Shown piece after piece: positions 1 to 63,655 of a DNA stretch of 64,000 bases. This DNA is from Moniliella sp. 'wahieum' (taxonomy: Eukaryota), in assembly GCA_003971905.1 (NCBI GenBank), contig RSEE01000017.1, positions 372,001-436,000 of the forward strand, given 5' to 3'. Both the position numbers and the translations under genes were made by a program. Position 1 is the stretch's first letter, and every line of letters starts with the position of its first letter. The notes beneath the pieces were generated by a model. That model saw nothing but the letters and a program-made list of their open reading frames with translations. It made no database searches and was not told the DNA's origin.

Positions 1-1050
1 CCATCGCTGAGACCATCGCCATAATCAATGGCCTTTGGCATGTGGCTTGTTATCGCCGACACCAACATAACATGGGAAACATGGGGCCAAAACACCCCAC
101 CACCCCCCGTGTCCCAGGTTGCTCATAGCGACGCCTGCCCAGCTGAATACTGGTATCCTGATCGGCCTGTGATCAGCCACAAATATGCCCCAGGCCTATA
201 TTTTGAGTACTGTGGGCATTCGGCTACTCGGAGTACTGGTGCCTGAGGGTGCCTGAGTATACTACAATGGACAAGACCGGGATGAGGTTGTCCCTCAGAT
301 ATTAGACTTCAAGCAGGGGGCTCTGGGAGGTCTTACGCCCGGGCTGCATTCGTGGTTCCCGTGCTTATTAGGCACTCACCAGCCGCTGAAGAGGGCTCAG
401 GCTGACCGGGCTGATAATGATCGTCAGGCCGGCGTCAGGCACGTCAGGCCTCGGGCTGAGGCTACTTGACCTCAAGCTTCAAGCTTCAAGATCCATGTAC
501 ATTTACATTGAAGCTCTGGGACGCCCACTACAGCCACATTACTTGCCTCATTCGCGTCACTAACGGTTTTGTGCTGTGCACGTGTGCATTGTACCGAGTA
601 ACGGCGAGGCTATCGCCATATCGATCTTCTCCTGTCCAGATTTTACTGCGCTTTTGACCGTTATGTCTCCAGGGTTTGTAGCACCCATCGAGACTACTGC
701 GGCCTGGACCTGGGCACCTGTTAGGGGACTGAGCCTCAGTAACTGAAGCGCTGAAGCGCTGAAGCTCTCGAAGCTTGAAATCAGTGAACATCAGATCTCC
801 GAGCAGTGCATGTGGGCATTCCTCTCGTAGGCGTGACACGTGACATGTCTAATGTGACACATGCGAGAGGCTTAAGAAGTGAAACAAGAGGCGTTCTCTC
901 GCATACGCGAACGTGCCGCCTGCTTGATTAACCCGATTCCACATGGTTCGCTCCTCAGCGCAGAAGGCCCGGATGTGAATCTGTAGGCATCCCTCAGGCC
1001 TCGCATAGGCGCGATGATGGGATTTACGATCTGCCCCCCCACCAAGTTCC

Positions 1051-1058
1051 TTATAAAA
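1051..1058 (+). promoter_or_regulatory. TATA box of the PGM-family gene
   Basis: TTATAAAA about 75 bp upstream of ATG 1129, followed by a CT-rich 5' UTR-like stretch. Confidence 0.55.
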
Positions 1059-1128
1059 ACAAGCATGTCGCCTTCCCTTCCTCTCCTTTTCCCCCATCCA
1101 CCTCTCTCTTCTCTCGCCCGTCTGCATC

Positions 1129-1760
1129 ATGTTCCCCGCTGTGCTCTTCTTTTGCTTTTGGCCAGCTTGGTTCAAGCCGACAAGACCAAGGTTGCCAACA
1201 AGGTGTACCTTATCCGGCATGGCGAAAAGCCGGACAGTGGGAATGGACTGTCGACCCAAGGTACCGAGCGGGCGCAGTGCCTTCCCTCGGTGTTCACCTC
1301 GTCGAACGGGTACAACCTGGGACTGATCATGGCGGAGCAGCCTCAATCGGATGGCTCGCAGCAGCGCCCCTACGACACGGTTAAGCCCCTTGCCGACTCG
1401 CTGGGGTTGACTGTGGACACCAACTGCCAGCGCGACGATACATCGTGCGTGGCCAACGAGATCCAAAACTTTGCCGATTCGTCAAGCCAGGACATCCTGA
1501 TTTGCTGGGAGCACAAGGCGCTGTCGGACATCTCGGACCAGCTGGGAGACCAATTCAAGTACCCTTCCGACCACTTTGGTATGTCTCTGTCTGCCTCCCT
1601 TTTGTTGCGCGTTTTGCGTTCTTTTTGGGGTTCTGTGGCGTATCTGATCGCTAACTGTGGGATGGGTGGATCGGCAATAGACTTGATCTACGAGATTATC
1701 GATGGCGACTTGACGTCCAACTCGCCCTGGTCTGAGGACTGCGCCGGGTTGGACTCGTAG
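1129..1760 (+). CDS. Secreted histidine phosphatase / phosphoglycerate mutase-family protein
   Basis: Motifs VYLIRHGEKP, G.ERAQCL, QRPYDTVKPLA and ILICWEH. Signal-peptide-like start MFPAVLF/LLLASLVQA needs one indel in the T-run. Intron GTATGT ~1578 to CAATAG 1680 with a GCTAAC branch. Confidence 0.85.
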
Positions 1761-5584: not shown

Positions 5585-6624
5585 TTACTTTCCGCTCTTC
5601 TTTTTGCGATTGACAGGTTTCTTGGTCTTGACCGCAGTGGTACCCGTCACAGCAGCTTCCGGCAAAGAAGGAGCTTCCTCTTGCTCCTCTCCCTTTTCGT
5701 CCGATTCCTTAGGGGGCGGGCGGAACTTCTGTACCAGCGCATAGGCCACGTGGTGGACCACGAGGGAGCTTCAAGCGCCTGCGGATCATCACAAACCGCT
5801 CTCCGCCCGAGTTGGGCACAACGCCTTCCACCAACTCGGGGGATACCATGACATCAATGGTGCGGGACGATGCGGCGACTGGGGCAGCCAAGAGTCGCTT
5901 GAGCGCACCCTCATGTGCAGCCCAAGCTTCTTCCGACTCATCAGAGGGCAGGGGGGAAGTGCTTCAAAGCCGCCCAGGGCACTCGCACTTTGCGCACACC
6001 AACCGCCTTCTTCCCCGCAGGTTGAAGATGAGCTGGGCTCTCGCATCCAGGGCCCAGGGCAACCAGCCGCGCAGTCCGCCACAGTGCCACCACTTTCTTC
6101 TGGTCTCGCACAAAGGTGTATTGTTCAGCGCACGCTCCAATGCCACCGAGAGCACGAAGAGAAAGACCATGACCCCAACCAGACCGGGGCGATAGCGGTG
6201 GTAAAAGTACCCTGTGCCCCTCCATTGAGGGAACCCGTTCTTGAGGAATTCATCGTACCGGTCCCTTCGTCCGTCGCGGAGAATCTTGTTGATGCGGCCC
6301 AGCTGTTCAAACTGCTTGGCTGCCTGGGCAGAAGGGTTGCGGTCCGGATGCAAGGCCAGCGATTTCTTGCGGTACGCGCGCTTGATCTCGGGCATCGACG
6401 CATCGCGTCCACACCAAGCGTCGTGTAGAAGTCGGCCTGGGGGAGGATGCGCGGAGCGCAGCCTGCAGCTCAAGATCTGGCGGGTAGGGCGCTAGGTCAG
6501 CAGGGAAGAACAACGCAGGGGAGAAACGCAGGTACCTCTGATGTCATCCTTGTCCCAGTGGTTTTGAGCGAGGGCGAAGCAGGCACCCATCAGCAGGGCA
6601 GACCCATGTCCAGCGGAGGTGCAT
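5585..6624 (-). CDS. ERJ5: ER membrane J-domain (DnaJ) protein, ERJ5/DNAJC25-like
   Basis: Signal peptide then WDKDDI-EIFEL, J domain [47 protein letters not shown] followed by a TM helix, and a basic C-terminus. Intron 6477-6535. Frameshifts present. Confidence 0.8.
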
Positions 6625-7740: not shown

Positions 7741-9304
7741 CTCGACTGGGCTTCTGTTTCAATCCCTTAACATAAACAACATGATCTACAAATCTCTCTC
7801 ATACTCTTCTCCAAATCGCTGTCCGTCTAAAACGCCAAACATAATGGTTCCGACTCAGTTTCTCACCTCCTTCTCGCCCGGTCGCTTTTTCCCTTGACCC
7901 TTCAAGTTTCATCCTCGAGACTCGTTCTTTTTCGCTTTCTTTTAGTGCGTGGCCATCACTTCCTTCCCTTACGATTCGTTTCCCTTAGACCTTTTCCATC
8001 ATTTGGTGCGTTTCACCCTTCACTCTAATATCGACCTCTTGTAACAGTCGGGGCTAGACAAGGGAGACCAAGGTCCTGTCAAAATGGGCTGAGAAATGGC
8101 ACGACCGTTCGTGGGAGGAAACAAGAGGCATCTGGGAGTAGGGAACCGAAGCAAAAGGGAAAGGGAAGAGCGAGATATGCGGGATGCAGAGAGCGTGTTT
8201 AGTCGATTGGTGACACCTCTCTTGGTTCTTTCTCTTCTCTTCTCTTATTCTTATGTGCCTGTTCTTTGACGAGGTTGGACGGGTGGGGAGATGATGCTAA
8301 AGATGTTGATGAGGTCGACGAGTAGTAGCATTAGTATAGCAGGGTAATGCATACACACCCCTTGTTATTTTTTTCTGTTTTTGTTTGGGCATTGGTCAGT
8401 AACTCCGCCCCATCCGGTCATTACGCTAGCGATTACGTTCCCTCCAGCTTCCCGACGCATGGATATCGCCTGCTGTTGCGGATAGGGCCAATGCAAGGCC
8501 TAGGCCTAGCCCCTATATTTAGATCTAGATCGGATGGTGTGATGAGAGTGATATGCCATGCAGCTTCACTTGAAATTTGAAAAGCTTAACGCTTACAGCC
8601 GGGACCAGAGGCTCTTCCCCCGCAAAGGTGTGCTCGAGCATCCAGGCGCTCAGCTCCCCACGAAGCCAAGCCTAGACTGGAGGCGCTGGGACACAGGGGC
8701 GCCAGGCTCGGGCGTGCGGAGGAATACTGAGGTCATTTTGGGGTGTGAGAAAAGAGACCCGAGGTACTCACTATGAAGCGTGACATGTGACAGGGGATGC
8801 ATGATGTGCAGCGACGAATGAGGCACGCATCCGCTGAACGTGATGGATTCCGCCTATTTCCGCCGCATCTGCCGTGCCGCGGACGATGGATGATGGGCGT
8901 GGTGGGTGAGCTGTGCGGACGACACTGGCGCCGTGCCAGCACACATGGAATGCCGCGTGGGGTGGGGGGCCGCATGGGGGCAGTGCGACCTCTTTAGCAG
9001 GCGCTGCATTGGGCGGACGCCTGCGGGCTGCTGCTCGGGCCTAGCTGGGCCCTCCCGCCCGGGCGGCCGCCGTGTCTGCCGCAGTGCATCCATTGGCCTG
9101 GTCTCGATCAGCGATCGTCCCACCACGCTGTCGTCGCCGATTCCGTCCCCCTCGCCCCCATCTCCAGCCTGCTGCCTCCACCCCTCTCGGCTGCGATCGG
9201 TCGTTGCTACTCGCACCCCCCCCCCCCCCACCCACCCCACCCGTCTGCTGCCCTCGCCTCGCCCCGCCACCCCCTCCCCCCCCCCTGAGGGTAAGGTGGA
9301 CAAG

Positions 9305-14918: not shown

Positions 14919-15333
14919 GCCTACACGTCCAGACTCTTAGCCTCGATCAGATGGATGGTGGCTGCCACTCAAGTTGGCGTTGTTGCAGACCGCGAGAAAG
15001 ACCCGCAGTGCAAATCTAGCCTTGAACTGAAGGCCGGCTGGTTAACCCTACTGGTGCTCCATTCCGCTGGGCGGAACGCGCCGCAGGATGATCGCTGTGT
15101 CTCTCAGGCTTAGCTTCATCGATCATCGATCATCCCTGTTTAGATCATCCATCACTTTGATCACTCCCCCATAAAATTAGGCCGGTCACGCGCACGCGCA
15201 CCTGTCACGCGTTCACGTTCAACATTGCTCTTGTACTTTGAATGTTGAAGGCCTGGAAGCGGAACCCGTGTTCCGCCCGCGGCAGCTGGCTGAAGCCCTC
15301 TAATCTGGGGGTAATGGCCTGCTCATCTAGGCT

Positions 15334-16904
15334 ATGACCCACCGCGTCTCCGTCTCGCCCGCCCCGACCGAGCCGTTGGCCTACACCCCTCCTCCCATGC
15401 GCGAAGAAGGCGAGCTTGAGGAACCCAGCGGGCTCGATGCCCTCGCAGCCCTTGCCGCCGCTCCCCTCAGCCATGGCTCATCCGACATGAGTGAGGAAGG
15501 TCGCATCCCGGATGGCCGTGACGATTTGTCCGATAGCGACAACAACCCGGACGCCGACGAGCCGGACGGAGCCGGACCAGGAGCCGGACCAGGCCGGACC
15601 AGGAACAAGAGGACGCTGAAAAGGATGATGAGGGCAATGGGGACGCTACCCCAGCGGTATCTCCGATGCCTCTAGTCCTAACCCCATTGCAACTCTGGGC
15701 TCGCTTGGCATTGTGCCACCTTGATGCCTGATCCAGCTGCGAAACTCAAGACCTCACTTTGTCAAACGCGACAGGTGTAGAAGACCTCGAGGAGCAGGAA
15801 CAAGACGAGGACGAAGATGAGGAAGACGAGGAAGAAGAAGAGGATGACGATGACGATGATGACGAAGAGGCGGTGGCCCGGCGTGCGAAGGCCCGAGCGG
15901 AGCGGAGAGCATCGATGCTGCAGGCCAAGAAGGAGGCTGAAGAGCGGCCGCCAAGGAGAAAGAGGAACAGGAAAAGGCTGATCAAGAAAAAGAGGCTAGT
16001 CTCAAGCGCGCGAGGGAAGAGGCGGACGAGGAGGAAGGGCCCCATAAGCGCTTGGCCGTCGTCCTGGAGGATGAGGGCGAACGTGGGACCCCGGCCACTG
16101 ATACGCCCGCAGGAGAAGAGGGTAGGTGCCCCATCTTTTTTGCTGCTGGGTTGGCTTGTGCTGACCGATACAGATACAGGCGCCGATGAGCTGGCTGTCA
16201 AGCGGCAGGAAGCACTGGATACGCTGACGGGGATCGAGGTGGACTTTGCGGCTCTACGGGACCGACTGTATGAAGAACGCATGTCCGAGGCAGCGCAGGA
16301 GGCACTCTTGCTCTATGAGGGCACCCACCCAGAACTGGTGCGGATCGGGTCACTGATTGAGCAGCGCCGGGCCCATGCGCGCGAAGTTACGCTGGCTTGG
16401 CAAACGCTTGTTACCGCAGAGCTGGAACGAACACGTGCCGCCCACCAAGAACGGATCTGGTCTTCCTGGCGTGCCGAATTGGCCGACCTGCGGACCAACA
16501 TGCTGGACGCGACGATGCGCAAGCGGCGACAGATCGAGCGCGAGCGACGAGCGCTCGATCGCGCCGCCGCGCTGCAGGCCAACCCGCCAGGGCAGGGCAT
16601 GGAGTACGAGCTGGCGATTGAACGGGAGCCAGCGACCGTGGCACGCGCATATGCAGCGGCCGCGGGCTTCCCGCAAGCAGGGCCAGAGGAGGAGAACGGG
16701 GCGGAAGGCGGGCTGCTGGCGTATCCTCTGCCGCGCGGGCTGGATGCAAATGTGGCGAACGACCTGGCGCAGGTGGGGCTGCTTCCGCCGCCAGAGCCGC
16801 TGCCGGAGATGGAGTACGAGTATGCGCGCTTTGAACGCCGCTCGCCTCCTCGCGCATATGGGGGCGGTGCAGGCGGGTACAGCGAGGGCTACTGGGGCGC
16901 TTAG
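15334..16904 (+). CDS. Sds3-like family protein (Dep1/Sds3, Rpd3L HDAC subunit)
   Basis: Acidic N-terminal region, then KRQEALDTLTGIEVDFAALRDRLYEERM..EGTHPEL and RKRRQIERERRALDR. Intron 16122-16179. Confidence 0.85.
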
Positions 16905-17258
16905 ACGCGCAGGAATTGGATTGTTAGAACGCACACGCAACGCACCCAGCTGCCGGCCGTCTCGGCTGGGCCGCAGCCACCGGCTGGCACGCATCGTGCT
17001 TGTCGCGTGCTGATGCACCCGTGCAGCAGCTCATGCACTCATGCCCCGGTGCACACGGCGCGCAGGCGCTCCGGTGCTCAGGCGCACGTAGGCATGGCGC
17101 ATGACGCGTGACAGCTGTGCTTCCGGGATGCGTGACAGACGCTACATGCTGTAGACTTATATATGCTCCAGGTAGCCTGTATGCCCCTCCTCCACCCCCC
17201 TTGCCTCCCTCCACCTCCACGCTCTTTCCGCGCCACACTCGCCTGCCCCTCGCCTGCC

Positions 17259-19443
17259 ATGGACACCACCGACACCGACACCGACGCGCTCCTCCCCATG
17301 CTCATCCGCCTGCCTACATCGTCCCCCACCCACCACCCTCCCACCACTTCGTCCCACTGCCCCAGTACGCCTCACCATTGCGCTTCGCCTCAGCCCCCGC
17401 CCCATCCGTCGCGGCCCTGCTCACCCTCGCTGCCCGCGGGATACCAGTCTGCATCCCTGTCTCCGTCTCCGCCCTCTCCCCCACCCCGCGTCACGCCTGC
17501 CCACCAACAATCTGCTCTTCGACCCGCCCCAGCACACTCCATGGTGCACCCGCGACGTCCGGGGTTCCAATTCAACACAATGAGCGACGCACCATCGGGG
17601 GCATCCCCCTCCCTTTCTCGCCTTGCCTCTGACTGGGCCTTTTCTGATGGACGCTCAGACTTGATGGTTCCCTTCGGCAGCCCTCTTTTCCCCTGGAGCC
17701 GCACCCCCCTCTTCGACCTCAACTAGCAGAGATCTGGCCAGCAGAATTAGCTGTCTCTCCCTCTGAAAAAGGAGTAACCATAACCCCCTCAAGGATCTAT
17801 ATCGACGTATGCTCCCGCGCCGCCGTCCCCCCCCCCCCTCCCCAAACCACGGTGGAAATACTAACCACGGACCAGTTGGATGAGCAACATACGCCACGGA
17901 ACGCTTACTTGCTTCGCCCCCTGGCAGGAACCATCACATCCTTCGCCCACCCAGCGGGGTCTCTCCCAAAGTTCTCCGTTGTTGTCCCATCGCTTCCAGA
18001 GGCCCCGTTGTTCACGGAAGTTATACCAAAAACGCAAGACACTCCAACTGAATCGGTTGAGCGCGTTGTTCAGCAAGCTAGTTACTTTACCCGTTCACAT
18101 GGCCGAGCTATCGCCCGTCTCATTGGTACAGAGGGGGGGGCGAACAAGAAGTGGCGAAAATCTTACTCGACATTGCGGCTGGCTCAATGGAACCAATAGA
18201 ATCCAAACCGGAACGAATGTCTTCCTTTACACCGAGGCGGGCCGGACGCAAGGCCTCTGCCCAGAAGGTCAAGTCCGATTCGAGTGGGCGTAGACCCGCT
18301 AATGCGCGACGCAGCCATCCCATTCCACCCCCCCTTGTGTCTCCTTGACAATCGCCCCTGTACGCACTGCAACGGAGAAAATCGATCTCTTTCCTGAACG
18401 GAAGGAGTGGATGCGGTTATTCCCTGATAACATGCCACTCTTGACACTATGTCCCAAGTTTTACATACGGTACCCTGTTCCCACCATGCTCTCCACCTCT
18501 CCCGCATTGCCAGAACTCATGTTTCCCTCAGCGTCTCTGCGAGATACCTACTTTCACGCTCGATCGTCACCCTGAACGGGGGCGAGGCTTGGAAACGACC
18601 TCGTCATCTGTTTGATCTCTATACACCCCGCCTCTTGCAAGGAAATGGACGCGAAAGGGCGGGACTCTGTCCTATTGGTACGTGCCTCCCTGTGGTGTGA
18701 TAATTATGAGTATACCACTCAGATTGACGGTGGTGTGTGTATCTATAGCTATGAAGAAGGGGTCGAGCATTGGGCCAAAGTACGTTTTGCCCCCTTTGTG
18801 TATGGGATGGTGGGCAACGCTGACCTAGTGACGGGGGGGGGGTATGGAATGGGGTGTAGACTAAAACGTCCAACTACAACTATCACATGTTGTATGTCCA
18901 CGGCATCAACTCTGCAACTGGGTTACCCTTCTACCCTCCTACTGCTTTCCGCAAGTCGCCCCGCCCCTTCTCTCGTCGAGGAACAAGGCTGAAGTCCTCC
19001 AAGGCCAATGTACGTTCTTTCTGATTCCCTTCACGTCTTCCAGCTCCTTAACCACCGACCCCCTACATAACAATATGCTAGGCTCTACATGCAAGCAGTG
19101 TACGTTCCTTCTCCCTTTTGGCTATCCGTTAATGTGTCTGACATCCGCCCAACAAGGGATCGACATTGAGAGCATTCGTCCTTGCCAGGTCAAGGTCCCG
19201 GAGATTTACTGGTGGAAGCATGCTCAGCAATGCCAAGGAGTTTACAAGACCCTCACCTTGGTGGAAGCAGTACAAGAGCTACAAGTTTTTGATCCTGAAG
19301 ATCAGGTCCGTCCTTCCTTTCTCTCCTTTTCTGGTATATATTGGTACGCGAGGACTGACATTGAGACGAAGCTCTATCTCCGCTACCTCGAGTTTATTCA
19401 GACCGCGGAGGACCCTTTTGAGGGGGAGGCCGTTGAGAGTTGA
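17259..19443 (+). CDS. Rua1 C-terminal (DUF4451) Cys/His domain transcription regulator
   Basis: DLYTPRLLQGNGRERAGLCPI, KTSNYNYHMLYVHGINSATGLPFYPPTAFR, IDIESIR..VKVPEIYWWKHAQQCQG. About 6-7 short introns. TATATA at ~17158 upstream of ATG 17259. Confidence 0.8.
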
Positions 19444-21888
19444 GAGGTGTGAGATGTGAGTATTGTAGTCATCTTCTCTCTTCTCTCTTCACTCCTTTCC
19501 AAAACCGCAACACGAAGGTTGATGTGTTTCGTTCGTCTCGTTTTTTTTTATTCTTCCGTTCGTCCGCCATGGTTGAGCACGTTGAGTACAGTTGCGCCTC
19601 TTGATTTGGCTGTCTCCATTCCTGTTCTCATATACAGAGTGTTGCAACTGTTTCCTATCCCTCAATAATGTTGAATTGGTCACATTCTAGCTTGCCATAT
19701 AAGGTCTCCCTCCCTCTGTGCGGACATAATCGAGACACAATCGCAATAGATTGAGTGAAGTGTAGCGACGTCCTCTGGTATGAAGATCGCCCATAACGCG
19801 TAACGTGATCAGAGGCCGGAGGGGGGGGCGAGTCGAGACAAAGTCAGGGAATGTGGCAAGGTGTCGTCAGCGGGTCAAGAAGCAAGAGCCGAGGACATGG
19901 AGCAAACCAGCAGAACAAGGAAACAACGAGACGCTCGAGACGAAGAAATTGGAAATGGGAACGGGAACAGCCAAACTATGACATCAAGATGCATATGACA
20001 TGATGTGCCGCATGAGGCATATGCGAAGAGGACCTACAACACTCCGTTAGCTGATGAAGGTGTTTGTAGTCCCGGTAGTCAGAAGTGGAGGAGGGTATAA
20101 CTGTAAGGCCAAGTGTCAGGGGAGGAACAGAAGAAAAAAGAGACAACTCGGTGGTGTGGCCCAGGAAATGAAAGAATATAGCTCCATCAAACGATATAGT
20201 ATAGTTTGGCACACCTGCCTGTGAGGGGCCGGTCACCTGATCGGCCACAACAGTATGTGTATAGGTTTTAGAGCTTTTATATCGCCTCATCGATCATCAT
20301 TCTCGTGCGCACAACACACGGGAGAAGCATCAGTTGTTCCCCGATCTGTCAGTACGATGGCGGGAGTTATACACGAAGACACGAGAGCGCCAAACACCGT
20401 GTTTTGGAAAAAGTTGATGTCACATGTCAGGTCACATGACTGCATGACCGTCAATGTTAAGCGTAAAGAGGAGTATTCGCACAGGTTATCCCTACTTACA
20501 ACACCCTAACAATGACCACTAGGGTGCATGCGGAAGCGACTAACAGCAGGGTCCATCACAGAGGGCGTCTGGGGAACCGTCCGGGAAGAAGAGCAAAAAG
20601 CCTCTCTGCCCGTACTTTAGATGTGCCGCTGCACCCCCCCTTTCCTTTTCTCTATGTGTGCCATGTATCAAACAAAGCCATTATACCATCAGTGATCGAT
20701 CGAATGATCCACTGACTGAGCCCTGCACCAGCACCATCAATACATCAGCGCTCAGGCTCTCAGCCTGGGCCTTCCATGCCGCCCGGTCCGCGGCATATGC
20801 GCGGCGCCAACATACGCTATACCCACATCCCGTACTTTCCGCGGGGTTCCATCAGCCTCGTCTGTTCATCGAGTTCATCGATCATCTCGATCATTCCCGG
20901 TTGTCAACTGCCCCCCAAAACAGGCGAGTACGCCTCCGCTCGTTCTGGAATGTTATGCACGTAACAACATCCCAAGTCTCGCTCTTCTGCTGGTCTTCTG
21001 CCCTGTCCCGCCTCGACTACATGGAAGCGGCTATTGATATACGAGAAGCAGTGACTAGTGAAATGCTTGAAGCTTGAAGCATATATGAAGACGCAGAGGC
21101 GAATGGCTCTGGCTGTTCTTGGATGAGCATGGTGGTGTGTGTGATGCGGGCCACGCACGCGACCGGCGGTTTAAATGCCTTAGCGCATCAGCGGCTGAGC
21201 CCCCCTGCTCCTAGTGGGATTGTCGAAGATGGTAGGGTGTGGCAAGGTGTGGCTTGCGGCACATGTCACATGTCACATGCAACACCGCTGCATGTTGCAG
21301 CTCGGAGTAGGCCGGATGAGTCACACAGAGGCCAGGCGGCCGTTGTTTCGGGCCCAGCCTCAGCGCTAGGCCGAGCAGGGAGCCTTGGAGCTCTTGAATC
21401 CTTGAAGCTTGAAGCTTGAAGCGTGCTTGATGCTTGATGCCCGGTGCCCTCCTCAGGCGGCCTGACCTCAGGGGTTTGAGGTTCTCAACAGCGAAATGCT
21501 CCACACCCTACTCCACCTCCTTTTTCCACCGTGCCGCTCGTTCCGACTGCGATACCTTCGATTTACCCTTCCGCTTTGTTAACATCTGCCTCCTCTACCA
21601 TGTACCAAGTTCTTGGCATCCATGTGGAATATGAACCCCCGCACCACGCATCGCGTGCAACGCGTCACGCCCCGCGCGATCTGAGTGAGATCTGAGAATC
21701 AGCACGACGCGTATGATGCGAAAAGGGGCAGATCGGCCTTCTTCTATACGCAGGTCCGTGCGGCGAGTGTGTAGGCAAGCGGACGCGCGCGGACGCGCGA
21801 ACCAGTTTGATCCAGCATGAGTGCATGCGTAGTAGTGGGCTAGTAGTGAGGCTGAGGAGGCTTTTGTGGGGACCTTTTTGGTGGCAGG

Positions 21889-21954
21889 TCACCGGTCACC
21901 GGTTACGCGTCACGCGTCACGCGTCACAGGTCATCGATCATCACAGATGAGTAC
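21889..21954. repeat. 7-bp-phased TCA/TTA + palindromic-tetramer array
   Basis: TCA-CCGG-TCA-CCGG-TTA-CGCG-TCA-CGCG-TCA-CGCG-TCA-CAGG-TCA-TCGA-TCA, then TGA-GTAC. Confidence 0.9.
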
Positions 21955-22171
21955 TGGTACTGGACTGTCTAGGATGTGAGAGAAGAAAGTCGCGCTAATT
22001 GCAACTGACGGGGGGGCTCAGCGGCTCAAGCGTTCGCGCAGGCGCACGGCCCCGTGGCGTGAGTAGGGCAGCATTTGGAGTCTCTAATCTAAGCCTGGCT
22101 GATCGCCAAGTCAGGGGTCCGAGGAAACATCTGTAACTCATTGATGCGCTGCGCGCACTCCGAAATTCACG

Positions 22172-22205
22172 TTAACGTTTAACGTTGATCATCGATCATC
22201 GATCA
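22172..22205. repeat. 7-bp-phased palindrome array
   Basis: TTA-ACGT-TTA-ACGT-TGA directly followed by TCA-TCGA-TCA-TCGA-TCA. Confidence 0.88.
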
Positions 22206-22345
22206 CTCGATCACGTTGATCCAGCCGTCCGGAGCACTGGACCCTACTGCGAAATACTACGTGCACCAATCCATCATCATGCATCACAGTACTCAATTCG
22301 TTCGGTACGTTCAGTGCAATCCGTCGCACGCCGGGGCAAATGTTC

Positions 22346-22373
22346 CGGCCGGGGTGCTTCGGCCGGGGTGCTT
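22346..22373. repeat. 14-bp direct repeat x2 (CGGCCGGGGTGCTT)
   Basis: Two exact adjacent copies. Confidence 0.8.
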
Positions 22374-23736
22374 CCAAAAATTAAAGCGATGCTACATGTC
22401 GCATGTCGGAGGCCTCAGCCTGAGGCTTCTCTGCTACAGTATACCATTGCCGGCTCTAGGCCTTTGGTATTACATCCTGGACCTTGTTCGGTGCAGATGA
22501 GCGCTCTCAGATCTCAGATCTCACAGGGGCTGAGAATCAATCAATTGTTACATGTTAATAAGCTTTACGCCAAGGCTTGTTGTATTAACGCTTTTTTGCA
22601 ACAAAAGCGATTCATTGACAGCACGCGCAAATGTATGCAGAAAGTAGACTTTGAGGGTTGCGGGTTGCCCGATTCGACATGTTTCTTCCCTCTCTATACA
22701 CCGCTTCTGCCCGATGCGCAGGAGTCCTTTTAACGCCTTAGCCTGAGACCCCCGTTGCCTATTTCCCGAGGCTCCAAATCTTTCGAACTCTTTGATCCAC
22801 CTCTATAACCGCTTGTCCTACGTCTACAGGGTGGATTGAATCCCATAAACTATGTGTGGTCCCACCGCCAGGCATTAGGCCGTTTATTAGGCCTGGCCAC
22901 AGGCCTTACTGTTGAACGTTGATTCGTGATTTGAGGGGCCTCGGCGCCTCAGCTTGAGAGGCCGACCAGATCCCAGAGGGAGTTGGGGGATTATCGATCA
23001 TCGATCATCTGATCGATGGTCATCGATTGGGCTCGTGACATGCGACAAATGACATGATGACACACAGATAGGGTGCAGGGTATGCTGTCTGTCGCAGCAT
23101 ACACGCCATATGCATACGCGGCCATATGACCCCGCAACGATGGGGTGGGTACACTGAGTACTGGGGACTCCGAGTACTGAGACGCAGGACTCCGTCCAGG
23201 GGGGGCTGCGGCTGTGTATTTGCCTACGCCAACCCAGGTGTTCCGACCACCGTCGGCGACATGCGGCTGCCGGTTGCCGAGCGCCGCGGTGTGAGACTGG
23301 TGCATATGCGTCAACGATCGGGGCCCAGCGTGCAGCAGACATGAATATTTGAATCGTTAGTAACCCGACAACTGGCGATGGTGTCCGAGACACAACAGGG
23401 CAGCCGGCTGGGCGTTGGACCCAGGCGGTGGATCGTCGGACCAGCAGCTGGGCAGGCGGATGCGCGCAGCAGGCGCGTGTCGGTCCCAATGCGTGCTGCA
23501 GCACAGCACGGCGCCTGAATGCGCCTCCCGGCCCCAGTGCTCCTTCCCAAGCCAGAACGCGTGTCCAGCTCGGTGGGCAGCACACCAGGGTCTCCACAAC
23601 CCCCGGAGCATCAACAGCCGCGCTCCTGTGTTCCGCGCCTCTAGCCTTCGGCATCCAGTGGCCATTCCACCCAGTTTGCCTCTTCCCTTTCCTACGGCGT
23701 CTCGTCCGCCATCTCTTTTGCAGCACTGCAACCACC

Positions 23737-30247: not shown

Positions 30248-30325
30248 TTACCGGTTACCGATTATCGATTATCACTTGGGACCAGAGTGTAACCACCGCC
30301 ATCGCGACTCGGATAATCGATAACA
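30248..30325. promoter_or_regulatory. Phased TTA-array containing a cluster of GATAA (GATA-factor-like) sites upstream of the DUF6534 gene
   Basis: TTA-CCGG-TTA-CCGA-TTA-TCGA-TTA-TCA, and GGATAATCGATAAC at ~30311-30324. Confidence 0.4.
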
Positions 30326-37103: not shown

Positions 37104-37423
37104 CTTATCGATTACCGAGATTATCTCGATTAGCGCCAGTGACGACCGGTGACTCTGGGGTTGGCGAGTACTCAGACTGAGTACCGAGTAAGTGTGCGAT
37201 CCTGATTACAACACTGCCCCAGTGCGCCATCGGCTGATCCAACTTACATGGCTCTCTCCAAGCTCCACCTCGGGGCCACCCATCCCCACGGACCACGTGC
37301 CTGCCACAACCGACTGATCAAGTTTCAAATTCCAAAGCTTCAAGCTTCAAGCAGCGAGTTGGCGGCGGTCCCTTTTGGGTCCTTAGTTAGACGCACCCGG
37401 GTGCCGGGTGTTACCGGTTATCA
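37104..37423 (-). promoter_or_regulatory. Putative AreA/Nit2 HGATAR sites in the formamidase promoter
   Basis: CTTATC 37104-37109, TTATCT 37121-37126 and TTATCA 37418-37423, each GATAA on the gene strand, 300-600 bp upstream of the ATG. Confidence 0.45.
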
Positions 37424-37562
37424 TTTCCCAGCGAGGGGAAGCACGATGTACCGAGGCTACGCGTTACGCGCAGCGTTGCGCCTTTAAGGCATCCTTCAGC
37501 CCAGGCAACGTGCATCTCTGTGATGGCGATGACATAATTCTCGCTCGGTGCCCCATTTGTGA

Positions 37563-37633
37563 TGATCGATGATTAATGATTGATGATCGATGATCGATGA
37601 TTCTACCTCTGAGATTTGAAATCTGAAATTTGA
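37563..37633. repeat. 7-bp-phased TGA array
   Basis: TGA-TCGA-TGA-TTAA-TGA-TTGA-TGA-TCGA-TGA-TCGA-TGA (37563-37600), and TGA-GATT-TGA-AATC-TGA-AATT-TGA (37610-37633). Confidence 0.88.
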
Positions 37634-43136: not shown

Positions 43137-46100
43137 TCAAACAGCCACAGGTGTGCTCGCAGGTCTCTCACCACCAAGGGCCCCTACCTTCAACATTACG
43201 TCTCTGGCGCTGCAGACACATGGAGAAAGTATGTGAATACATAGGGGGTGGGCCTCCATAACCATGCCAGAGAAGGCCAACGGAAAGAGATGCATATACG
43301 ATGCGACCACTTTAGCCGTCTTGCGTTCCAGCTCCTCCAGCCGCACTTCAAGCTCGTCGGCTCGATCCCGGATGAGAAGCAGACGCTCCAAATCGCGCAG
43401 AACGCCCGTCGAATCACCCGAACAGGCCGCATTGCCCGGCGAAATTGGCGAGGTTGCCGCCACGCCCAAGGCCGAGTCCAGCGCCGAAAAGTCTTCGTCC
43501 CAATCCAGGCCGGTTAACAGCGCTGCTGCTGCCTCTTGGTGACTGAGTTTGGTCTTGGAATTTTTGTCTGTGCTTTGGCCTTGGCTTTGGTAGTCTTGTG
43601 CGCCGACTTGTCCCGCCCAATCGTTCCTGCGGGAGTGGGGGGGTGGTAGAAGAGGCGGTGGCCTCCTCAAACATCAGCACCATTCTCCGACTCACGGAAC
43701 TGCCAACCCCCAAAAGTTGCTCGCTCTTTTCTTGGCTCTTGAGGGAGAGAGGACAGTACGAAACGAATTTTGCCCAGGTGTCTGCGTCCATCCCACGGGT
43801 TGGGTGAGGGTAGACTCAGCACCGGACAGGAGTTAGGCAGTTCACGCTGTTTCCCTTGTACACAGCAAATTTAGGGCGTTCCGACGTGGTCTTCCGCCTC
43901 TTTCCGTCACAGGGTCAAACGCACAGTGGAAAGTAGAACCTTTTTCCCAGTCCGAGGAATCAGGCCAAGCCGAGAAGGGATGAGGGGCCGGCGGAGAGGG
44001 GATGCCCATTCGCACCTTGTTTTGGGCATCGAAGCAAGGGTGAGGGAAGAGGTTGCGGTCTTGTTTGCTGGGATGCGGAACGAGGGCATCGGAAATGACT
44101 TGGTATGCGTCCAGACCCGACTCACATCATTCGGACAGCCGTGGCTGGATCAAAGTTTTTCGGATCGGCCCGAGGCTTGGACAGGGTAGGTAGTTTGGTT
44201 TGGTTTGGGGGTTGGGGATGGGGTTTCTCCCGGCTGATCCTCTTGTCTTACATTCTTGTACCCATTGTGCAAGTCGAGGGGGAAGAGGCAGCAGACCATG
44301 TCGCCCACCATTCACATAACCCCGCTCCAGGTCTGCGTCCGACACGAATCACAAGAACGCGATACGTCGCGGCCCGTCTTGGCGGAGACGAGTTCGGCGA
44401 AGATCATGGCAACGCGACTTGCTCGGTAACCTGTGATGGATTGGACGCAAAGCATTCTCCCTGGTAGGCACAGGGAGCAGTGGCCGGGGAAAAGTCAGTG
44501 CTTAAAGTGGGTTGAGGAGGTAATACAGGTTCAGGCTTGGGAAGGGGATGGGATGAGCTCCCGACACCGCGATCAACCGAGTCAGACAAAAGAGCTGTTG
44601 AGGCATGTACCTTAGCCGTCGGGGTAAGACTACTCGGCGCTGGCGGAGAAAGTCTGTTTTTGTCGTTGGAGTAAGGCTGTTTCTAGGCATCGTGTGAAGG
44701 TCCGGGACCTTTGATACCGAAGATGGTGACAAGGGTTCTTCGCTCGTCCCTGGGGTTTCCAAAGACGCATTGACAGGGTTTAACTCAGGTTCATCCTCTT
44801 CCGACTCCCACTCCGCCTCCTCGTCATATTCCACCGACTCCTCGGAATCAGACTTGGGAGGAGGACGGGGTGGGCGGAGCCCAATGTCGGGGTGAGACGC
44901 AGCTCGGTAAGTCGCATCCAGGTTATCATGAATCTCGAAGAGTTGATCCAGGGTATCGCGCATGCCCCTTAGTTGTCCCAGGCGTCGGCTGACGTCGGCA
45001 ACCAATATATCGGAGACTTCGGCGGTAGCTGCGCCAAAGGGAGTGGAAGCCAGACCGGCTGTGGCCCGGGCGGCTTCCTCCGCATGCTTGGCCATGCGAG
45101 CAGTTGCTTCCGCCAGAACACACTGCTTCTGCATAAGCTCCACCTGCCGATTGGCTTGCTGCATGATGCGATCCACCTCCTGCATCACTTCTTCCACAGC
45201 AAGAGAGCCTTCATCAACCCCTGGAGCGGAAGAGATCAACTCCACCATTTTCCCGGCCACAACTCTGATCTTCTCCAACACATCTGGGGCGGCGACTGTA
45301 TCCCTCTTGGCCAAGTCAGCAAGAAGGTCCGCTTCCTCCGCCTTACGAGCCGCATAAGCCACAATCTCCGTTTTCGACATGCGCTCCAATTGGTCAGACG
45401 TGAGATCCGCTTCAACGACCTCGGACCGATCCGCCTTTCCATTTTCTTGCTTTTTGTCACGAATTTCAGCCAGAGCAGCTGAGAAGGTTGTTCGCACATC
45501 CTCGCTCACGTGGGGTTGAAAATCGGATGATGGTGGTGCTTGGGCGGAGGAATCCTGGAGAGGAGAGGAGGGGGATGTAGTCTGAGGAGAAGGCAGGGGG
45601 TTCGAAGCAATTGACTGTTTCAGGGCCTCTGCAAACGACTTGGAACTTGCTCCACGTGTCTCTGGAGGATTTGGGCCAGTTGGTCTCCATCTTCCCAATG
45701 CGGGCTTGGCCGAAGGGAGCAATGGTGCACGGGAGGGAGAAGGGGTGGATGAGCTAGATGAGACCGGTGGGGCAGTTGCGCTCGGCGATGACAATGACGG
45801 CGTGAGGGGGGCAATCTCGCTGTGGGCTGGGGCTTCTGATGCTGGGGCCACTGGTGCTGAGGGCTCTGGTGCTGGGACCTCTGGTGCTGGGACTGATGCT
45901 GGTGGCGATGCCGATGCTGGTGCTGATGCTGATGCTAGTGCTGGTGCTGGCACTGGAGTTGGGGCAGGGGCTGGGGTAGGCAGGTGTAGGTTGTAGATGC
46001 AGGTGTAGATGCAGGTGCAGGTGCAGGTGCAGGTGCAGGTACAGGTGCAGGTGCAGGTGCAGTGTAAATGCAGGTGCAGAGTTGAGACAGGGCGGGAAAA

Positions 46101-46564
46101 AGGTGGCACCAGATTTGAGTGGAGCATTCTTCGAGCTTGCCGAATGTAAACCGATCTTTGCTATACTCATTGCGGCGCGGGTTGTGTATCATGGCTTTGG
46201 AGGGAAGTCGCATGGATGAAGAGGTCGGGCGGATTCGGGCTGGTCGTGAAGCAGCTTGTGTGGTCGCTGGTGCGGCACGCGGGGGTGTCGTCGCTGATGC
46301 AGCAGAGGATGGCGGGGCCGTTGGCGCAGCTGGAGACAGCGTGGCCGCTGTTGCAACAGGAGATGGTGTGGTCGTTGGGGCCAGCGTGATGGCGTGGTCG
46401 TTGGTCCAACAGAGATGGTGTGGTGGTTGGGGCAGCAGGGGGCGGTGTGGCCGGCGGTGCCACAGGGGGTGGAGTAGTCTCTGGAACAGTGCGAGCGATG
46501 AGGTCTCTAGAGACGACTTGCTCTCCTCCACTGAGGAACGAGCAGGGGCCGGTACACTCTCCAC
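43137..46564 (-). CDS. Large low-complexity/coiled-coil hypothetical protein; probably the C-terminal continuation of the TPR gene
   Basis: Long open frames with AP repeats, helical segments (EVDRIMQQANRQVELMQKQ; LLLIRDRADELEVRLEELERK) and a CDSC..CC motif near 44300. Terminal intron ~43214-43298. Confidence 0.55.
45850..46080. repeat. Coding hexamer repeats (GCAGGT)n and (GCTGGT/GCTGAT)n encoding (AP)n/(AS)n
   Basis: About 12 near-perfect GCAGGT-type units at 45996-46078. Confidence 0.85.
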
Positions 46565-50425: not shown

Positions 50426-50727
50426 TCCCCTTTTGCTTCATGCTTTTGTAGTCTCTCCTATGCGACAGAAATACCATTTCTTGTCCCTGCGTCATGTGCT
50501 CCACACTCTATCCGTACCTGTAGCGCCCCCCTTCCACTGAAACCCAACCTACCTCGTCCATTGAGTGGACTTTGCCTGGCGCCCCACGACCCTGCTGTCC
50601 AATACCTACTGGGTACCTATGTGAGACCAGCCACAATCACCTCAGGATCATCGATCACGATTCAAGGAGACCAGAGTGGGCAGAAGATCAGATAATGAGA
50701 GCTGCTACAGAGCGAATCCGAGCAGAT

Positions 50728-54313: not shown

Positions 54314-54411
54314 CCAGCGTCATCTCACTTCTACGTGTACCATATCCTGCCTGTACCCCTCTCCTCAAAAATGCGCATGGCTTGCCTATGCTCACATGGG
54401 CCAGTGCATGC

Positions 54412-56333: not shown

Positions 56334-56701
56334 CGAGCATGCAACGGGCAGGCGCAGTTGTGGGTGGGGGCGTGGGCCAGACCGAGGGCGGGAAGGTGGC
56401 CGAGGGACGGCTGGACGAGGGAGGAGCGCAACGCTGCTCCACAGGTACATACTACGGCTCCAATGCTGGACCCTGGCCCTTGCCATTTCAATTTCAATCT
56501 CCATCGTTGGTGCGCAGCCTCCCAGAGTGAGGAAGCAGGCGACAGGCTACCAGTGGCGCCGTGCGGTTCAGCCCGCGGAATGATGCGGAATCAGCCAGGG
56601 GCGGGGTTGCTAGCTACTAGTTACTAATTGCCGGGCGCCCTTCAAGCTTCAGCTTCAGGCTGAAGCTCCAGGCAGCTCGTGGGCAGCCAGCGGACGCAGC
56701 C

Positions 56702-57375
56702 GATGGCTTGGACCTGGGACATCGACCACCACCCACTCCGCCCATGCCCAGCCCATCATCTCCCGTGCTGGCCAAGTTGGCTTACGATCAAACGGAAACG
56801 CTCTCAACGTACCGCGCGTGAACCCTTGGATCTTGCGGACCAAAGCGATCGGCGTGTCGGCTGTGTTTGCCAGCGTGGCTGGTGCCGCCCTCTACAAGAT
56901 CGCAACCCGCCCGTACGTCGCTCTTGCATATTCAACCTGCCGCTCTGGAAATGCTGACAAACCATGTGTTTTTACAGCAAGAAGGAGGACCCCTGGGTCC
57001 GCGTGAGGTCCTACGGCTTTTAGATGCGTCGCTTTGCGCAGCCAACTTCTGGGTCTGGAGGTGTTCTATCTTGAGGAAGCAAGGGTTCTGGACAAGAAGA
57101 CAATCACAGGGAGGTCTTGATATGTCCTATTTCATGCCAGGAATGCTGCGAATGTTGCCTATGCATCGTGTATATCCATCATGCTGACCCAGGGGCTTAG
57201 TGCTCATGGAATTGGGGTTCTGGTCTATTCATCTACCGAACGATGGGACTATTCGGGATTGGCGGCCAGGAAAGATCTCATTGGAGATGGTTCATCGATC
57301 ATCGCTTGTCTTCCTTCGGATGCACTCGCGCTAGATCCGATTCAGAAGCGAATGCCGGGAGTCAGAGGGTTCTGA
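56702..57375 (+). CDS. Small hypothetical spliced protein
   Basis: Clear intron GTACGT 56912..GCTGAC..TACAG 56977, and a second with a GCTGAC..CAG acceptor at ~57192. Hydrophobic segment IGVSAVFASVAGAALYKI. Divergent from VPS9. Confidence 0.4.
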
Positions 57376-57758: not shown

Positions 57759-58781
<1,023 letters not shown>

Positions 58782-59131
58782 GTGGTGGTTGCAGGCTCGT
58801 CAGTGCTTTTTCTTTCCGGCCATTTTTCTGCGTTGCACATCAATCAGGGCCGTGGGGTGTTGCACCGAGGTAGAAACATCGCATTGGTCCATCACCCATC
58901 CCGAGCATCATCATGCATCAATCCACCTTCAGCAGCAGATCATCGATCATCGATCATCGAACTCATACCACAACTGCCTCACTGCCTCACCTACGTCGAT
59001 CGTTAAGCACATTCAACCGCCTTCCATTCACCTCGAGAGCACCATCCACCTTAGATCCCAAACCTACGGAGTAGGCGTGCTCCGCAGCTAAATCCCACGA
59101 AAATGATGCATGCGAGAAGCAGGACAATGTA

Positions 59132-60759: not shown

Positions 60760-61484
60760 GGTCGAGACAGGTAGGTGGGGGGAACTGGTGGCGGGGGGAT
60801 GGCAGAGAGAAAAGCCCCGTGAACGAGACGCGCCGCCGCGCGACTACCGGGGGGGCACCGCAGGCTCGCGCCCTGCCCGTGGGCGGAACGCTTCGGCTTG
60901 CTTCTTCCCGCCCACACCAACACGCCGGGCACAGAGCCAGTCTGTGTCCATTTCAAATGTTCAACGCGTGCGTGTTCGTTCGCACCCCGCCGAGGCGCAA
61001 CTACCGGCGCCCTCTCTCGCGCGCAGGCCTGGCTGGGCAAGAGAATCGCCGTGCGTACTGCTTCTGCTGCTCGTTCCTTCGCGCCACACAGCAGCCAATC
61101 CAGCGCCCAGCACGCAGGCCCAGGAGTCAGGATCACAACGCACACCACCATCCTCTGGTCCCACGAGTGGAGCAGATTGCCAGGTGGAAGCTTGGGGCGT
61201 ACAAGGGCGTGCGTACATCGAACAGGTGGGCGGGCTATCACATCCTCCTGCAGTACTGTCTAGCTACGCGCTCTCTGCGGTCAAGCAAAAACAACGAACA
61301 CGCTTCTGCCCAACAAATAGCTCACACGCAGGCCATGCAGCAGGCAAATGATCAGATGTAGGAAGGAGGATCGGTTCATCGTAGTTCTGGAAATCAAGTT
61401 GCCAGTTCCAGCAGAACTGCTGACAACTGGCACACCGAGAGCCAGGGTAAGGAATTCAAAGAACGCCGAGACAGGTGACTAAAT

Positions 61485-62425
61485 TTACTTGTAAACCTTG
61501 CCAAACAGCACCTCCTGGAGCTTGTCGTAGCCCGACAGCACACCAGCGCCGGCCACACCACGAAGGATGTTGGCGCCGGCACCCTTGAAGAGCGACTTGA
61601 CGCCCTCCTTGGCAACAATCTGGCGACCAGCATCGAACATGCCGTTTGTAGTGCGTCTTGCCACCCGAGGTCATCATCATGCGACGACGGATCGTGTCGA
61701 GCGGGTACGAAGCAATGCCGGCACCCGTGGTGACCACCCAGCCGAGCAGGAAGGAAGCGAGGAAAGAGCCCTCAAGAGGACCCGTGATGATAACCGGCTT
61801 AACCGAGTCGTACACACCAAAGTAGAGACCACGGTAGACCACAATACCGACGACCGAGGGGATAAAGCCACGGTAGAGACCAGCGATACCGTCCGAAGCA
61901 ATCGTCTTGCGGTACACGTCGAGATGAGGCCGTTGAACTGGCGCTCACCACCCTTGCCGGCCGACTTGGCGTCGTTGGCAAGACGAGTACGGGCGTAGTC
62001 GAGCGAGTAGACAAACAGAAGCGACGAGGCACCAGCGGCACCACCCGAGGCAATGTTGGCACTGAGCTTCTTGACGTAGGGGGCATCCTTGGGCACCTTG
62101 AACAGGGCCTTGAAGTAGTCCTTGAAGGCAAAGTTAAGAGCCTGGGTGGGGAAGTAACGGATGACGTTGGCCGTGTTGCCACGCCAGAAGGAGACAAGGC
62201 CCTCCGACTTGTAGGTGCGAGTGAAGGTGTCGCCGAGACCGCTGTAGGGCGGTCAAGACGGCCTTGCTTGATCATCTCATCCTGGTTCTGGATGAGAAGC
62301 TTGACACGCTCGATGGGGGCAGCCGCCGTCTTGGAGACAGCGGCCGAGATGCCACCCATCATAAAGTCGGTGAAGAAGGACGAGGCCGTCTTGGGCTTTT
62401 GCGCGGGATCGACAACGGCACCCAT
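61485..62425 (-). CDS. AAC: Mitochondrial ADP/ATP carrier
   Basis: [72 protein letters not shown] (RRRMMM signature). Apparently intronless; frameshifts present. Confidence 0.97.
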
Positions 62426-63655
62426 GGTGAAGGAGGAGTTGTTGGTGGGAAAGAGAAGGAGCTGCTGCAGCTCCGTTCGTGCTTGTGCAGAGGGTAGATA
62501 GCAGCAGCCCCGCAGCAACACAGGCGCGGCGCCGGGAAGGCTGCGCCGACGGGATGACAGCACGAGGGCAGTGAGGTGCATGCTGTTTGCCACGCAAGCT
62601 GGCGCCGTGCGGGCGGGATTCCAGCTGTTGCTGTGCTGTCAAAGGTTTTTGAAATCAACGGCGGCATAGGGCGACCGGTGAGCGGTGGCCGCCACCCGTG
62701 AAGCGATGACGATGCCGCGGGACGAGTGGCAGGCGGCGATAGCGCAACCATCGATAGCGCAAGCGCAGTGCAGCTTACGGCGCCGTGTTTGGGGCTACCG
62801 GGTACCGGTTGCCGGCTGCCCGTTCCGTTACATGGGTTAGCACCTCCTCCTTGGAACCATAATATGCCAACTCGATGAAGCTCCGGTACCTCATGAATCA
62901 TCCCGAGGCCTGAGGACCAAAGGCTCACCCGCATGGCGAAGAATGACGCCAGAGTACCATCAACAAACAGTTCATCTCGCACCAGAGTATTCTCACCACC
63001 TCGGCTGCTGCGCTTCCGTACGATCATCTCTCGACTGTACAGTTCCAAGCCCCCTTTGAAGGAACCATTTCGTGTGGCCTGAGCAGATGCACAGAGCGGG
63101 GATCGCTTTCCGACATGCGACGGCCCCTAAGGCCTAAGGCCTAATTGGCGTACGCGGTGGCTCCATCATGCATCACCGCACCCAGACAAGGCGAAAGCAG
63201 GTTGAAAAGACTAGTGGCCTCAAAAGCGACAAACGCATGCAGCAAAAGAACCCCCCCTGTATTGGTGACTGCTGATGACATAGGATCTAGGGAGAAGGGC
63301 CACACGACGGTGCAGGCGGAGGGCCTAAGCATAGTGCATGTCTTCATTACATGGATTTTGAGACCAACGATGACATATACCTTGCTGGAGTCGTTTGTAT
63401 TAGCGCCATCAAAACTACGGAGCATGGAGTCATGGGGTGATACACGCGGCGCAGGCGCCAACAGAATCGATTACGATTGCAACAAGGTGTGAGCATCCGT
63501 GGGGTAAACATGGAAGAAATCTGAGCCATGGCAAGAGAACGTTTCAGCCAAACGAAACATATCTTTTTGGTAGACCACCACGTCGCGGGGAGGGTGGAGG
63601 TCAAATGTGAGTGAGCGAAAAAAGGGAAATATGGGAAAATGATAGACTGCCCACA

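Follow-up and report, generated by a model that had tools for sequence, protein, structure and literature searches.

What process writes short, symmetric heptamers into the non-coding DNA of a fungal genome? We addressed this question in a 64-kb stretch of nuclear DNA with a G+C content of 53-59% (the window), in which an initial annotation had noted T-N-A triplets recurring every seven bases and separated by interchangeable four-base palindromes. We find that this phased pattern is real and strongly non-random, and that the palindromic core is templated by the dinucleotide adjoining it. The units are probably excision-type scars of a cut-and-paste element that makes 7-bp target duplications and leaves hairpinned flanks, with repeated events at hot spots building up arrays.

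Sequence rule of the heptamer units

We counted TNA-N4-TNA, in which two triplets are separated by any four bases, and compared the counts with third-order Markov simulations. The window contains 173 such sites where 102.4 were expected, and the central four bases are palindromic in 65 of them, against 6.5 expected (z 24). The palindromic share is thus 38% rather than about 6%, the excess over roughly 1/16 that had been proposed as a check of the pattern. The two triplets share their middle base in 55 of the palindromic sites and differ in the other 10; the former number compares with 1.8 expected under the Markov model (z 39), and with 2.57 on average, and never more than 6, under a second null model of 100 dinucleotide shuffles inside 500-bp blocks. 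The anticipated excess of TCA and TGA at a lag of seven bases was likewise found, with 40 TCA-TCA and 39 TGA-TGA pairs, whereas the other lags between 3 and 29 give roughly 10-27. All palindromic tetramers except TATA, 15 of the 16, appear in the list of sites, where at least 13 had been counted before.

Every example cited in the initial annotation was found in place, at 472-488, 2232-2241, 8571, 15116-15132, 20420, 21052, 21266-21275, 21403-21419, 22507-22523, 22991-23007, 30248-30271, 37340-37349, 48782, 56642, 58911, 58940-58956 and 63128-63144. An assembly artefact seems implausible for short, exact structures of 12-23 nt with so many different cores.

Exact tandem repeats of at least two copies with period 7 number 32, against 3.7 expected under the Markov model, and Tandem Repeats Finder returned many period-7 rows. 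However, periods 6 to 10 all exceed the Markov expectation by similar factors, and an excess is present at every period from 4 to 10. Period 7 is set apart by the content of its units and not by its fold-excess: 19 of the 32 units are self-reverse-complementary up to rotation, compared with 9.8% of all 7-mers in the window, and no such bias was found in the repeat units of periods 4-6 and 8-10.

The enriched unit is longer than the triplet. It consists of the five bases TNAxy, two bases that are the reverse complement of xy, and TNAxy again, so that a 5-base direct repeat encloses a 2-base inverted copy of its own end. Writing W for TNAxy and P for the reverse complement of xy, we identified 67 strand-wise matches to W.P.W, corresponding to 37 loci, against 0.2 expected under the Markov model and 0.3 (maximum 2) in the local shuffles. 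The same unit is visible in the runs of bases that match at a distance of seven, which number 8930, 2305, 668 and 195 for lengths of one to four, and then 91 at length 5, where extrapolating the ratio of 0.29 between successive lengths gives about 57 by our own arithmetic. A second bump, of six runs, occurs at length 12; runs of 5 and 12 correspond to structures of 12 and 19 nt. Runs of length 3 show no enrichment of a palindromic 4-base spacer (39 of 668, or 5.8%, against 6.25% by chance). The initial annotation had taken symmetry and spacing to be what is conserved; the constant part is TNAxy, its inverted dinucleotide and TNAxy, and not TNA alone at a spacing of seven.

The origin of the core is clearest in the isolated sites. 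In 26 of 32 isolated TNA-palindrome-TNA sites, a dinucleotide flanking the structure equals half of the core, against about 12% by chance. The match lies on the right in 11 sites, on the left in 10 and on both sides in five, near-equal classes that fit a symmetric process; the six sites that match neither flank approximate the chance background. Across the W.P.W matches, the two spacer bases copy the dinucleotide distal to TNA in 51 and fit both ends in 16, and no match copies the TN end alone; another 18 include one-step derivatives, for example CG to TG. As the core is copied from the flank, nearly every palindromic tetramer occurs. The pre-event site, TNAxy, is not itself palindromic, and no consensus beyond T.A around a free middle base was detected in 22 isolated sites.

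The rule is restricted to a single geometry. Enrichment among the spacer classes compared is confined to 2+2 (67 against 0.27 expected). Even spacers of 2, 6 and 8 stay at chance level, the odd lengths 3 and 5 give at most 2-5 cases against fewer than one expected, a spacer of 7 gives none, and the odd_flip classes hold 2, 2 and 0 cases against 0.87, 0.03 and 0.0. Perfect 10-base palindromes of the form TNA-palindrome-TN'A occur at four loci, of which one follows the flank rule, and these may be chance products.

A proposed seven-base target and hairpin origin

Some loci extend the direct repeat beyond five bases. Where one extra base follows P, it equals the base to the left of the first TNA in six of ten cases (2.5 expected); where two follow, they equal the left dinucleotide in three of ten (0.62 expected); and where three to six follow, none of 14 matches. 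The direct repeat is accordingly of five bases at most loci, six bases at six loci and seven at three, and is never longer. We conclude that the duplicated target is at most baTNAxy, seven bases symmetric about N, and the absence of repeats beyond seven bases suggests that the break is staggered by seven bases, with TNA at its centre. The variants are as follows, with strand given where assigned.

20864-20879, plus strand: 7-base-repeat variant GTTCATC.GA.GTTCATC
30832-30847, minus strand: 7-base-repeat variant GTTGAAG.CT.GTTGAAG
34186-34201, plus strand: 7-base-repeat variant TGTGAAT.AT.TGTGAAT
17030-17043, plus strand: 6-base-repeat variant C|TCATG.CA.C|TCATG
23049, and on the minus strand 20435, 22201, 33970 and 750: other 6-base-repeat variants
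23342-23354, plus strand: variant with three palindromic bases, TGAAT.ATT.TGAAT; others at 15205 and 42988

Our first model, an asymmetric 5-bp duplication of TNAxy, was dropped in view of the 6- and 7-base variants and the complete lack of P bases proximal to TN. Products carrying P bases from both flanks, which would have period 11, were not found in exact form among five candidates.

Two further structures lie near the left end of the window. At 743-774, a period-8 array, CTGAAGCG in 3.9 copies, can be written TGAAGC.GC.TGAAGC, a 6-base repeat from TNA plus two palindromic bases, and is at odds with the 7-base model. At 420-460, GTCAGGC occurs three times, separated by CGGC and AC; the last pair consists of a 7-base repeat around the reverse complement of its first two bases, with the TCA one base off centre.

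Written as an event, each scar starts from baTNAxy and yields baTNAxy + y'x' + TNAxy or, on the other strand, its mirror image, with a net gain of seven bases. We infer hairpins, a nick position, a ligation step and a transposon as agent from these products, in the following scheme. A cut-and-paste transposon would enter a 7-base staggered target, nnTNAnn, giving a 7-bp target-site duplication, and on its excision perfect hairpins would close both flanks. Each hairpin would be nicked two bases past its tip, leaving one strand longer by two palindromic (P) bases and its partner shorter by two. End joining would then connect one flank, through its lengthened 3' end, to the recessed 5' end of the opposite flank: on the top strand, the left side would end in ...TNAxy y'x' and the right side would begin at T, and ligation would yield baTNAxy.y'x'.TNAxy, while the corresponding ligation on the bottom strand would yield the mirror product. 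The outcome would be two copies of TNA around a 4-base palindrome, half of which is copied from one flank, and the 6- and 7-base-repeat variants would arise where less is lost from the other flank. This scheme would explain the net gain of seven, the 5-base repeat and the even palindrome matching one flank, as well as the equal left and right classes, the lack of TN-derived P bases and the longer variants. Each scar would also be a new nnTNAnn target in a palindromic context, and re-insertion and re-excision, or slippage, could then generate runs of two to five identical heptamers, with local hopping accounting for the clusters upstream of genes.

The scars share two features with hairpin-type footprints, such as those of Ac/Ds, Tam3 and Hermes, the joints of Transib and RAG, and those of Muta1. 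Two copies of the target duplication are retained, here as direct repeats of five, six or seven bases, and what separates the copies repeats the flank in inverted form (67 matches against 0.2-0.3, and 26 of 32 isolated sites). In contrast to these footprints, the window scars have a 7-base stagger on TNA and an even palindrome, nearly always gain two bases and lose two, and form heptamer arrays. Passages of PMC5499845 describe flank hairpins, opening by host nucleases and end-joining footprints for hAT, Transib, RAG and the MULE Muta1, and Ac/Ds footprints are described as palindromic copies of flanking DNA in part of PMC4561436.

The scars do not fit the hAT superfamily proper, given their period of 7 and the 67 matches in the even 2+2 class against 2, 2 and 0 in the odd_flip classes. 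In hAT elements such as Hermes and Ac, an 8-bp duplication, nTnnnnAn, is accompanied by a hairpin offset by one base, which yields a flipped base or odd palindrome. Within the Basidiomycota, sections of PMC12730594 report 7-bp duplications for hAT7 in Pucciniales and for Kyakuja in five orders of Agaricomycotina, and an excerpt of bioRxiv 10.1101/2024.08.15.608186 gives 8-bp duplications for Cryptococcus KDZ elements. Kyakuja (KDZ) and hAT7, whose hosts are also basidiomycetes, may resemble the putative element in their 7-bp target-site duplications; they are known from Agaricomycotina and Pucciniales, whereas the window is Ustilaginomycotina-like and holds no copy. Such elements would be recognised by a KDZ or hAT transposase gene or by CA..TG termini; in the window, no transposase domain was found by Pfam searches of six-frame open reading frames (ORFs) of at least 110 aa, the scan used throughout.

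P-type excision leaves long 3' overhangs, not hairpins. Galileo, a member of the P superfamily in Drosophila, has a 7-bp duplication with the symmetric consensus GTAGTAC (as given in part of PMC2775673). It resembles the proposed target in being symmetric about a central base, but its centre is A-N-T and not T-N-A, and its host is an animal.

The T-N-A target with a free middle base is shared with PIF/Harbinger elements, and IS5-group elements likewise target T-N-A. The scars are nevertheless not 3-bp TNA duplications of the PIF/Harbinger type: a 3-base repeat with a palindromic spacer is at chance level (39 of 668), and the repeat reaches five to seven bases. According to portions of PMC4561436, PIF/Harbinger elements make 3-bp duplications with 5' overhangs at TNA and excise precisely, without footprints, and mPing accepts any middle base. 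We also rejected a 3-bp duplication flanking remnants of transposon ends (2+2 terminal-repeat bases), which would need more than ten families with different termini, and which does not account for cores that match the flank.

Several observations weigh against excision of a transposon as the source of the scars. No transposon, pair of terminal inverted repeats, dispersed repeat or transposase domain was found in the 64-kb window, and the agent is therefore one that we infer: scans for inverted and direct repeats and a custom scan for target-site duplications with terminal inverted repeats gave chance-level pairs only, and Pfam recognised host genes only. The density is very high for footprints, at about one locus per 1.7 kb overall and about one per 180 bp in 19.8-23.0 kb, and the outcome is far more uniform than that of classical Ac/Ds or V(D)J joints. 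Canonical hAT geometry predicts odd palindromes, of which there is little or no excess, and the group known to target TNA, PIF/Harbinger, duplicates 3 bp and leaves by precise excision. The nnTNAnn preference is tied to no known family, the searched PMC12730594 supplement containing no Kyakuja or hAT7 target sequences, and the 7-base stagger draws on just nine variant loci.

If excision scars are nonetheless what these units are, about 65 separate break-and-repair events would be recorded in 64 kb at base-level detail. The recorded chemistry, with its stagger of seven bases about T-N-A and its two palindromic bases, would come from an agent absent from the window and would provide a precise signature with which to search for the responsible transposase, in related fungi too. 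The scars would further constitute a natural read-out of hairpin opening and end joining in a fungus, and a source of promoter insertions upstream of genes that surveys of repeats and simple sequence repeats, most of which end at hexamers, would miss. They would also caution that phased symmetric patterns are not safely read as regulatory grammar. A full-text literature search, which may miss papers, found no published description of the heptamer pattern or of fungal footprint arrays.

Distribution in the window and rival explanations

The loci are clustered and largely non-coding. Only two of the 37 exact loci fall under stop-free frames of at least 200 codons, although such frames cover 50% of the window; by this proxy of ORF length, which is not a gene model, the earlier impression that the arrays are rare in coding sequence is borne out. 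Coding DNA would be cleared of 7-base insertions of any origin, and the non-coding location therefore says nothing on function. Eighteen of the 37 loci lie within 20-24 kb, in the ORF-poor interval that separates the Sds3 gene from the DUF1765 gene, and most of the others lie a few hundred bases upstream of genes (at 472, 2232, 8571/8781, 15116, 37338-37600, 56640, 58909-58958 and 63126-63175). The clustering fits either local hopping or a preference for open chromatin.

This ORF-poor interval, about 6 kb from 17000 to 23300, holds half of the scar loci and no Pfam-recognisable ORF, and between 17031 and 22997 every frame is shorter than 200 codons. Candidates for its nature are a long promoter, a non-coding RNA and a former landing zone for transposons.

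The same scar chemistry could arise where no transposon resides, if TNA sites in open chromatin suffered breaks with a 7-base stagger and hairpin-capped ends, made by a nuclease or transposase, endogenous or domesticated, or by integration aborted in "hit-and-run" fashion. The absence of any element in 64 kb that nevertheless holds 37 scar loci, the extreme uniformity of the outcome and the concentration of scars upstream of genes all speak for this explanation; there is, however, no candidate enzyme, local hopping explains the clusters and repeated hits equally well, and nothing in the window separates it from true excision. We regard it as unlikely. A stronger version, in which such a transposase-like nuclease, or hit-and-run transposition that leaves no copy, repeatedly cuts TNA in open promoters, inserts uniform palindromic units of seven bases and thereby serves as a built-in generator of variation in promoter length and sequence within the fungal lineage, rather than leaving transposon debris, seems to us slightly more doubtful. 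Replication slippage, or hairpin-assisted expansion, of heptamers that were palindromic by chance would make the arrays heptanucleotide microsatellites with a structural bias. Tandem repeats do exceed the Markov expectation at each period from 4 to 10, arrays of two to five identical units exist, and slippage may add units once two copies are present. Yet the majority of loci are singles, a 5-base repeat with two flank-templated bases, which slippage cannot make from a pre-event site that is not palindromic, and it leaves unexplained the strict requirement for T.A and the limitation of the palindromic bias to period 7. Heptanucleotide simple sequence repeats would grow by unit slippage independently of the flank, whereas flank-templated singles dominate here, and we consider slippage as the primary origin quite improbable.

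A different kind of explanation was put forward in the initial annotation, which proposed a general regulatory factor that reads TCA and TGA half-sites spaced by seven, or their symmetry, and so marks promoters, nucleosome-free regions or origins. The clustering of loci upstream of genes and the lag-7 excess of TCA and TGA pairs would be expected of such arrays. Selection for binding does not predict a flank-copy rule such as that in 26 of the 32 isolated sites, though, and without a flank match there is no excess of TNA-palindrome-TNA, as the chance-level 3-base-repeat class (39 of 668) illustrates. Furthermore, 15 of the 16 cores are used, only T.A is conserved with no flanking consensus, copies decayed by point changes are present, and avoidance of coding sequence is expected for any 7-base insertion. 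An array of transcription-factor binding sites should conserve a core or half-site beyond what mutation supplies, and here the flank dictates the core. We therefore judge the regulatory origin very unlikely, while secondary co-option of some arrays for regulation is possible. The alternative raised alongside it, a process that makes palindromes, was right in kind. Its specific form, template-switch mutagenesis that perfects imperfect inverted repeats, would also yield perfect short palindromes from a flanking template, but it corrects existing quasi-palindromes and adds no direct repeat, whereas the pre-event TNAxy is not palindromic and the net change is always +7. A fold-back copy would moreover complement the middle base of TNA, which the two copies share (55 same-N against 10 different-N sites). 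The signature fits P nucleotides from opened hairpins, and template switching is the least credible of these explanations, with only a very slight chance of being correct. The TCACGAT/TCACGAA-type heptamers of Ustilago maydis, put forward as a possible parallel, were not confirmed, a full-text literature search having returned nothing relevant.

Individual loci, host genome and related contigs

The principal loci other than the variants above are listed below, again with strand where assigned.

472-490: array TCAAG.CT.TCAAG.CT.TCAAG, two 7-base units, 19 nt, upstream of an ORF at 987-1757 (plus strand)
2232-2253: TAACG.CG.TAACG, followed by a decayed unit (CG to TG)
8571-8582, plus strand: single scar TGAAA.TT.TGAAA, upstream of an AreA-GATA-like ORF
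8781-8792, plus strand: single scar TGACA.TG.TGACA
15116-15134: array TCATC.GA.TCATC.GA.TCATC, upstream of the Sds3-like gene
19794-23009: hot stretch with 18 of the 37 exact loci, upstream of the DUF1765 gene; cores CGCG, TCGA, CATG, CTAG, AGCT, GATC, CCGG, ACGT and TGCA; arrays at 21401-21421, 22187-22205 and 22505-22523, and a composite at 21887-21942
30246-30273: mixed array TTA-CCGG-TTA-CCGA-TTA-TCGA-TTA
30312-30323, minus strand: single scar TTATC.GA.TTATC
30853-30864, plus strand: single scar TGAGT.AC.TGAGT
34274-34285, plus strand: single scar TGACT.AG.TGACT
37338-37351: TCA-AGCT-TCA array, upstream of the formamidase gene (minus strand)
37561-37600: five-unit array TGA-TCGA, -TTAA, -TTGA, -TCGA, -TCGA
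50646-50657, minus strand: single scar TGATC.GA.TGATC
56640-56651, minus strand: single scar TGAAG.CT.TGAAG, just upstream of the VPS9-domain gene (minus strand)
57292-57303, plus strand: single scar TCATC.GA.TCATC
58909-58920 and 58938-58960: single TCA-TGCA-TCA and array of 3.3 copies of GATCATC, between the TCP-1 and arginine-methyltransferase genes
63126-63144 and 63164-63175: array of two TAA-GGCC units and single TCA-TGCA-TCA, upstream of the ADP/ATP-carrier gene (minus strand)

The mixed arrays can be derived by the flank rule with a few point changes. At 30246-30273, the left core is copied from the flank GG on its left and the right core from the flank TC on its right, and the larger composite at 21887-21942 can be derived in the same manner. 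At 22160-22225, the minus strand reads G|TGATC.GA.G|TGATC.GA.TGATC.GA.TGATC, with AACG on both sides and an adjoining TTAAC.GT.TTAAC, and several events of different classes appear to be stacked at this one site. Cores within the arrays at 2232-2253, 27977-27996 and 37561-37600 differ by CG to TG or CG to CA, giving the series TCGA to TTGA to TTAA, and CGCG to CGTG. These changes suggest decay by CpG transitions, possibly a consequence of cytosine methylation of short repeats.

The genes of the window are interrupted and fungal in type. The Pfam scan identified a Zn2Cys6 factor, an AreA-type GATA domain, Sds3, formamidase, a PUF protein, a NIPA transporter, alanyl-tRNA synthetase, RPB10, a VPS9 domain, arginine methyltransferase, CCT5, an ADP/ATP carrier and a DUF1765 gene, and Rfam and tRNA scans of the window gave no match. 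For a CCT5 fragment, identity is 81-84% with Tilletiaria, Jaminaea, Sympodiomycopsis and Tilletia, 74-84% with Malassezia and 92-93% with further assemblies, and the PUF ORF reaches only about 30% identity to named basidiomycetes. These two protein matches place the host as a poorly sampled basidiomycete, most likely of the Ustilaginomycotina. The subphylum hinted at by the mention of Ustilago was thus close, the best named protein matches being to Exobasidiomycetes and Malassezia. Coding low-complexity repeats at 45826-46439 and 15796-15868, with periods of 6, 12, 18 and 27 and an acidic GAAGAC-type tract, lie in ORFs for which a protein search found no database relatives, and are unrelated to the heptamer pattern.

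We additionally scanned metagenome contigs. The scan was seeded with one array and is therefore a biased sample, of 121 loci in 416 kb. It contained 25 further W.P.W loci against 8.4 expected, a modest excess, and 42 of its 60 isolated TNA-palindrome-TNA sites obey the flank rule, with many TCGA cores near the seed. Independent single scars with other cores were identified in the fungal contigs L032 (beside an AA9 gene), L064 and L044; contig L041 carries a NACHT gene.

Finally, we noted long heptamer arrays of GGTCACC/GGTCACG, GATGATC and GTCGTAA in three high-GC (68%) bacterial contigs with SecDF, RNase E/G and outer-membrane barrel genes (L015:5100-5240, L048:2060-2170 and 5995-6050, and L061:6000-6135). 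Some of them form inverted pairs flanking a GC-rich hairpin that is followed by a run of T. As in the window, these are tandem 7-base intergenic units, some of which combine TNA with a palindrome (GGTCACC, GATGATC). In contrast to the window scars, they are long and arranged as inverted pairs with a hairpin between them, their units include non-palindromic ones (GTCGTAA), and isolated 12-nt singles are absent; they are a different thing from the scars described here.

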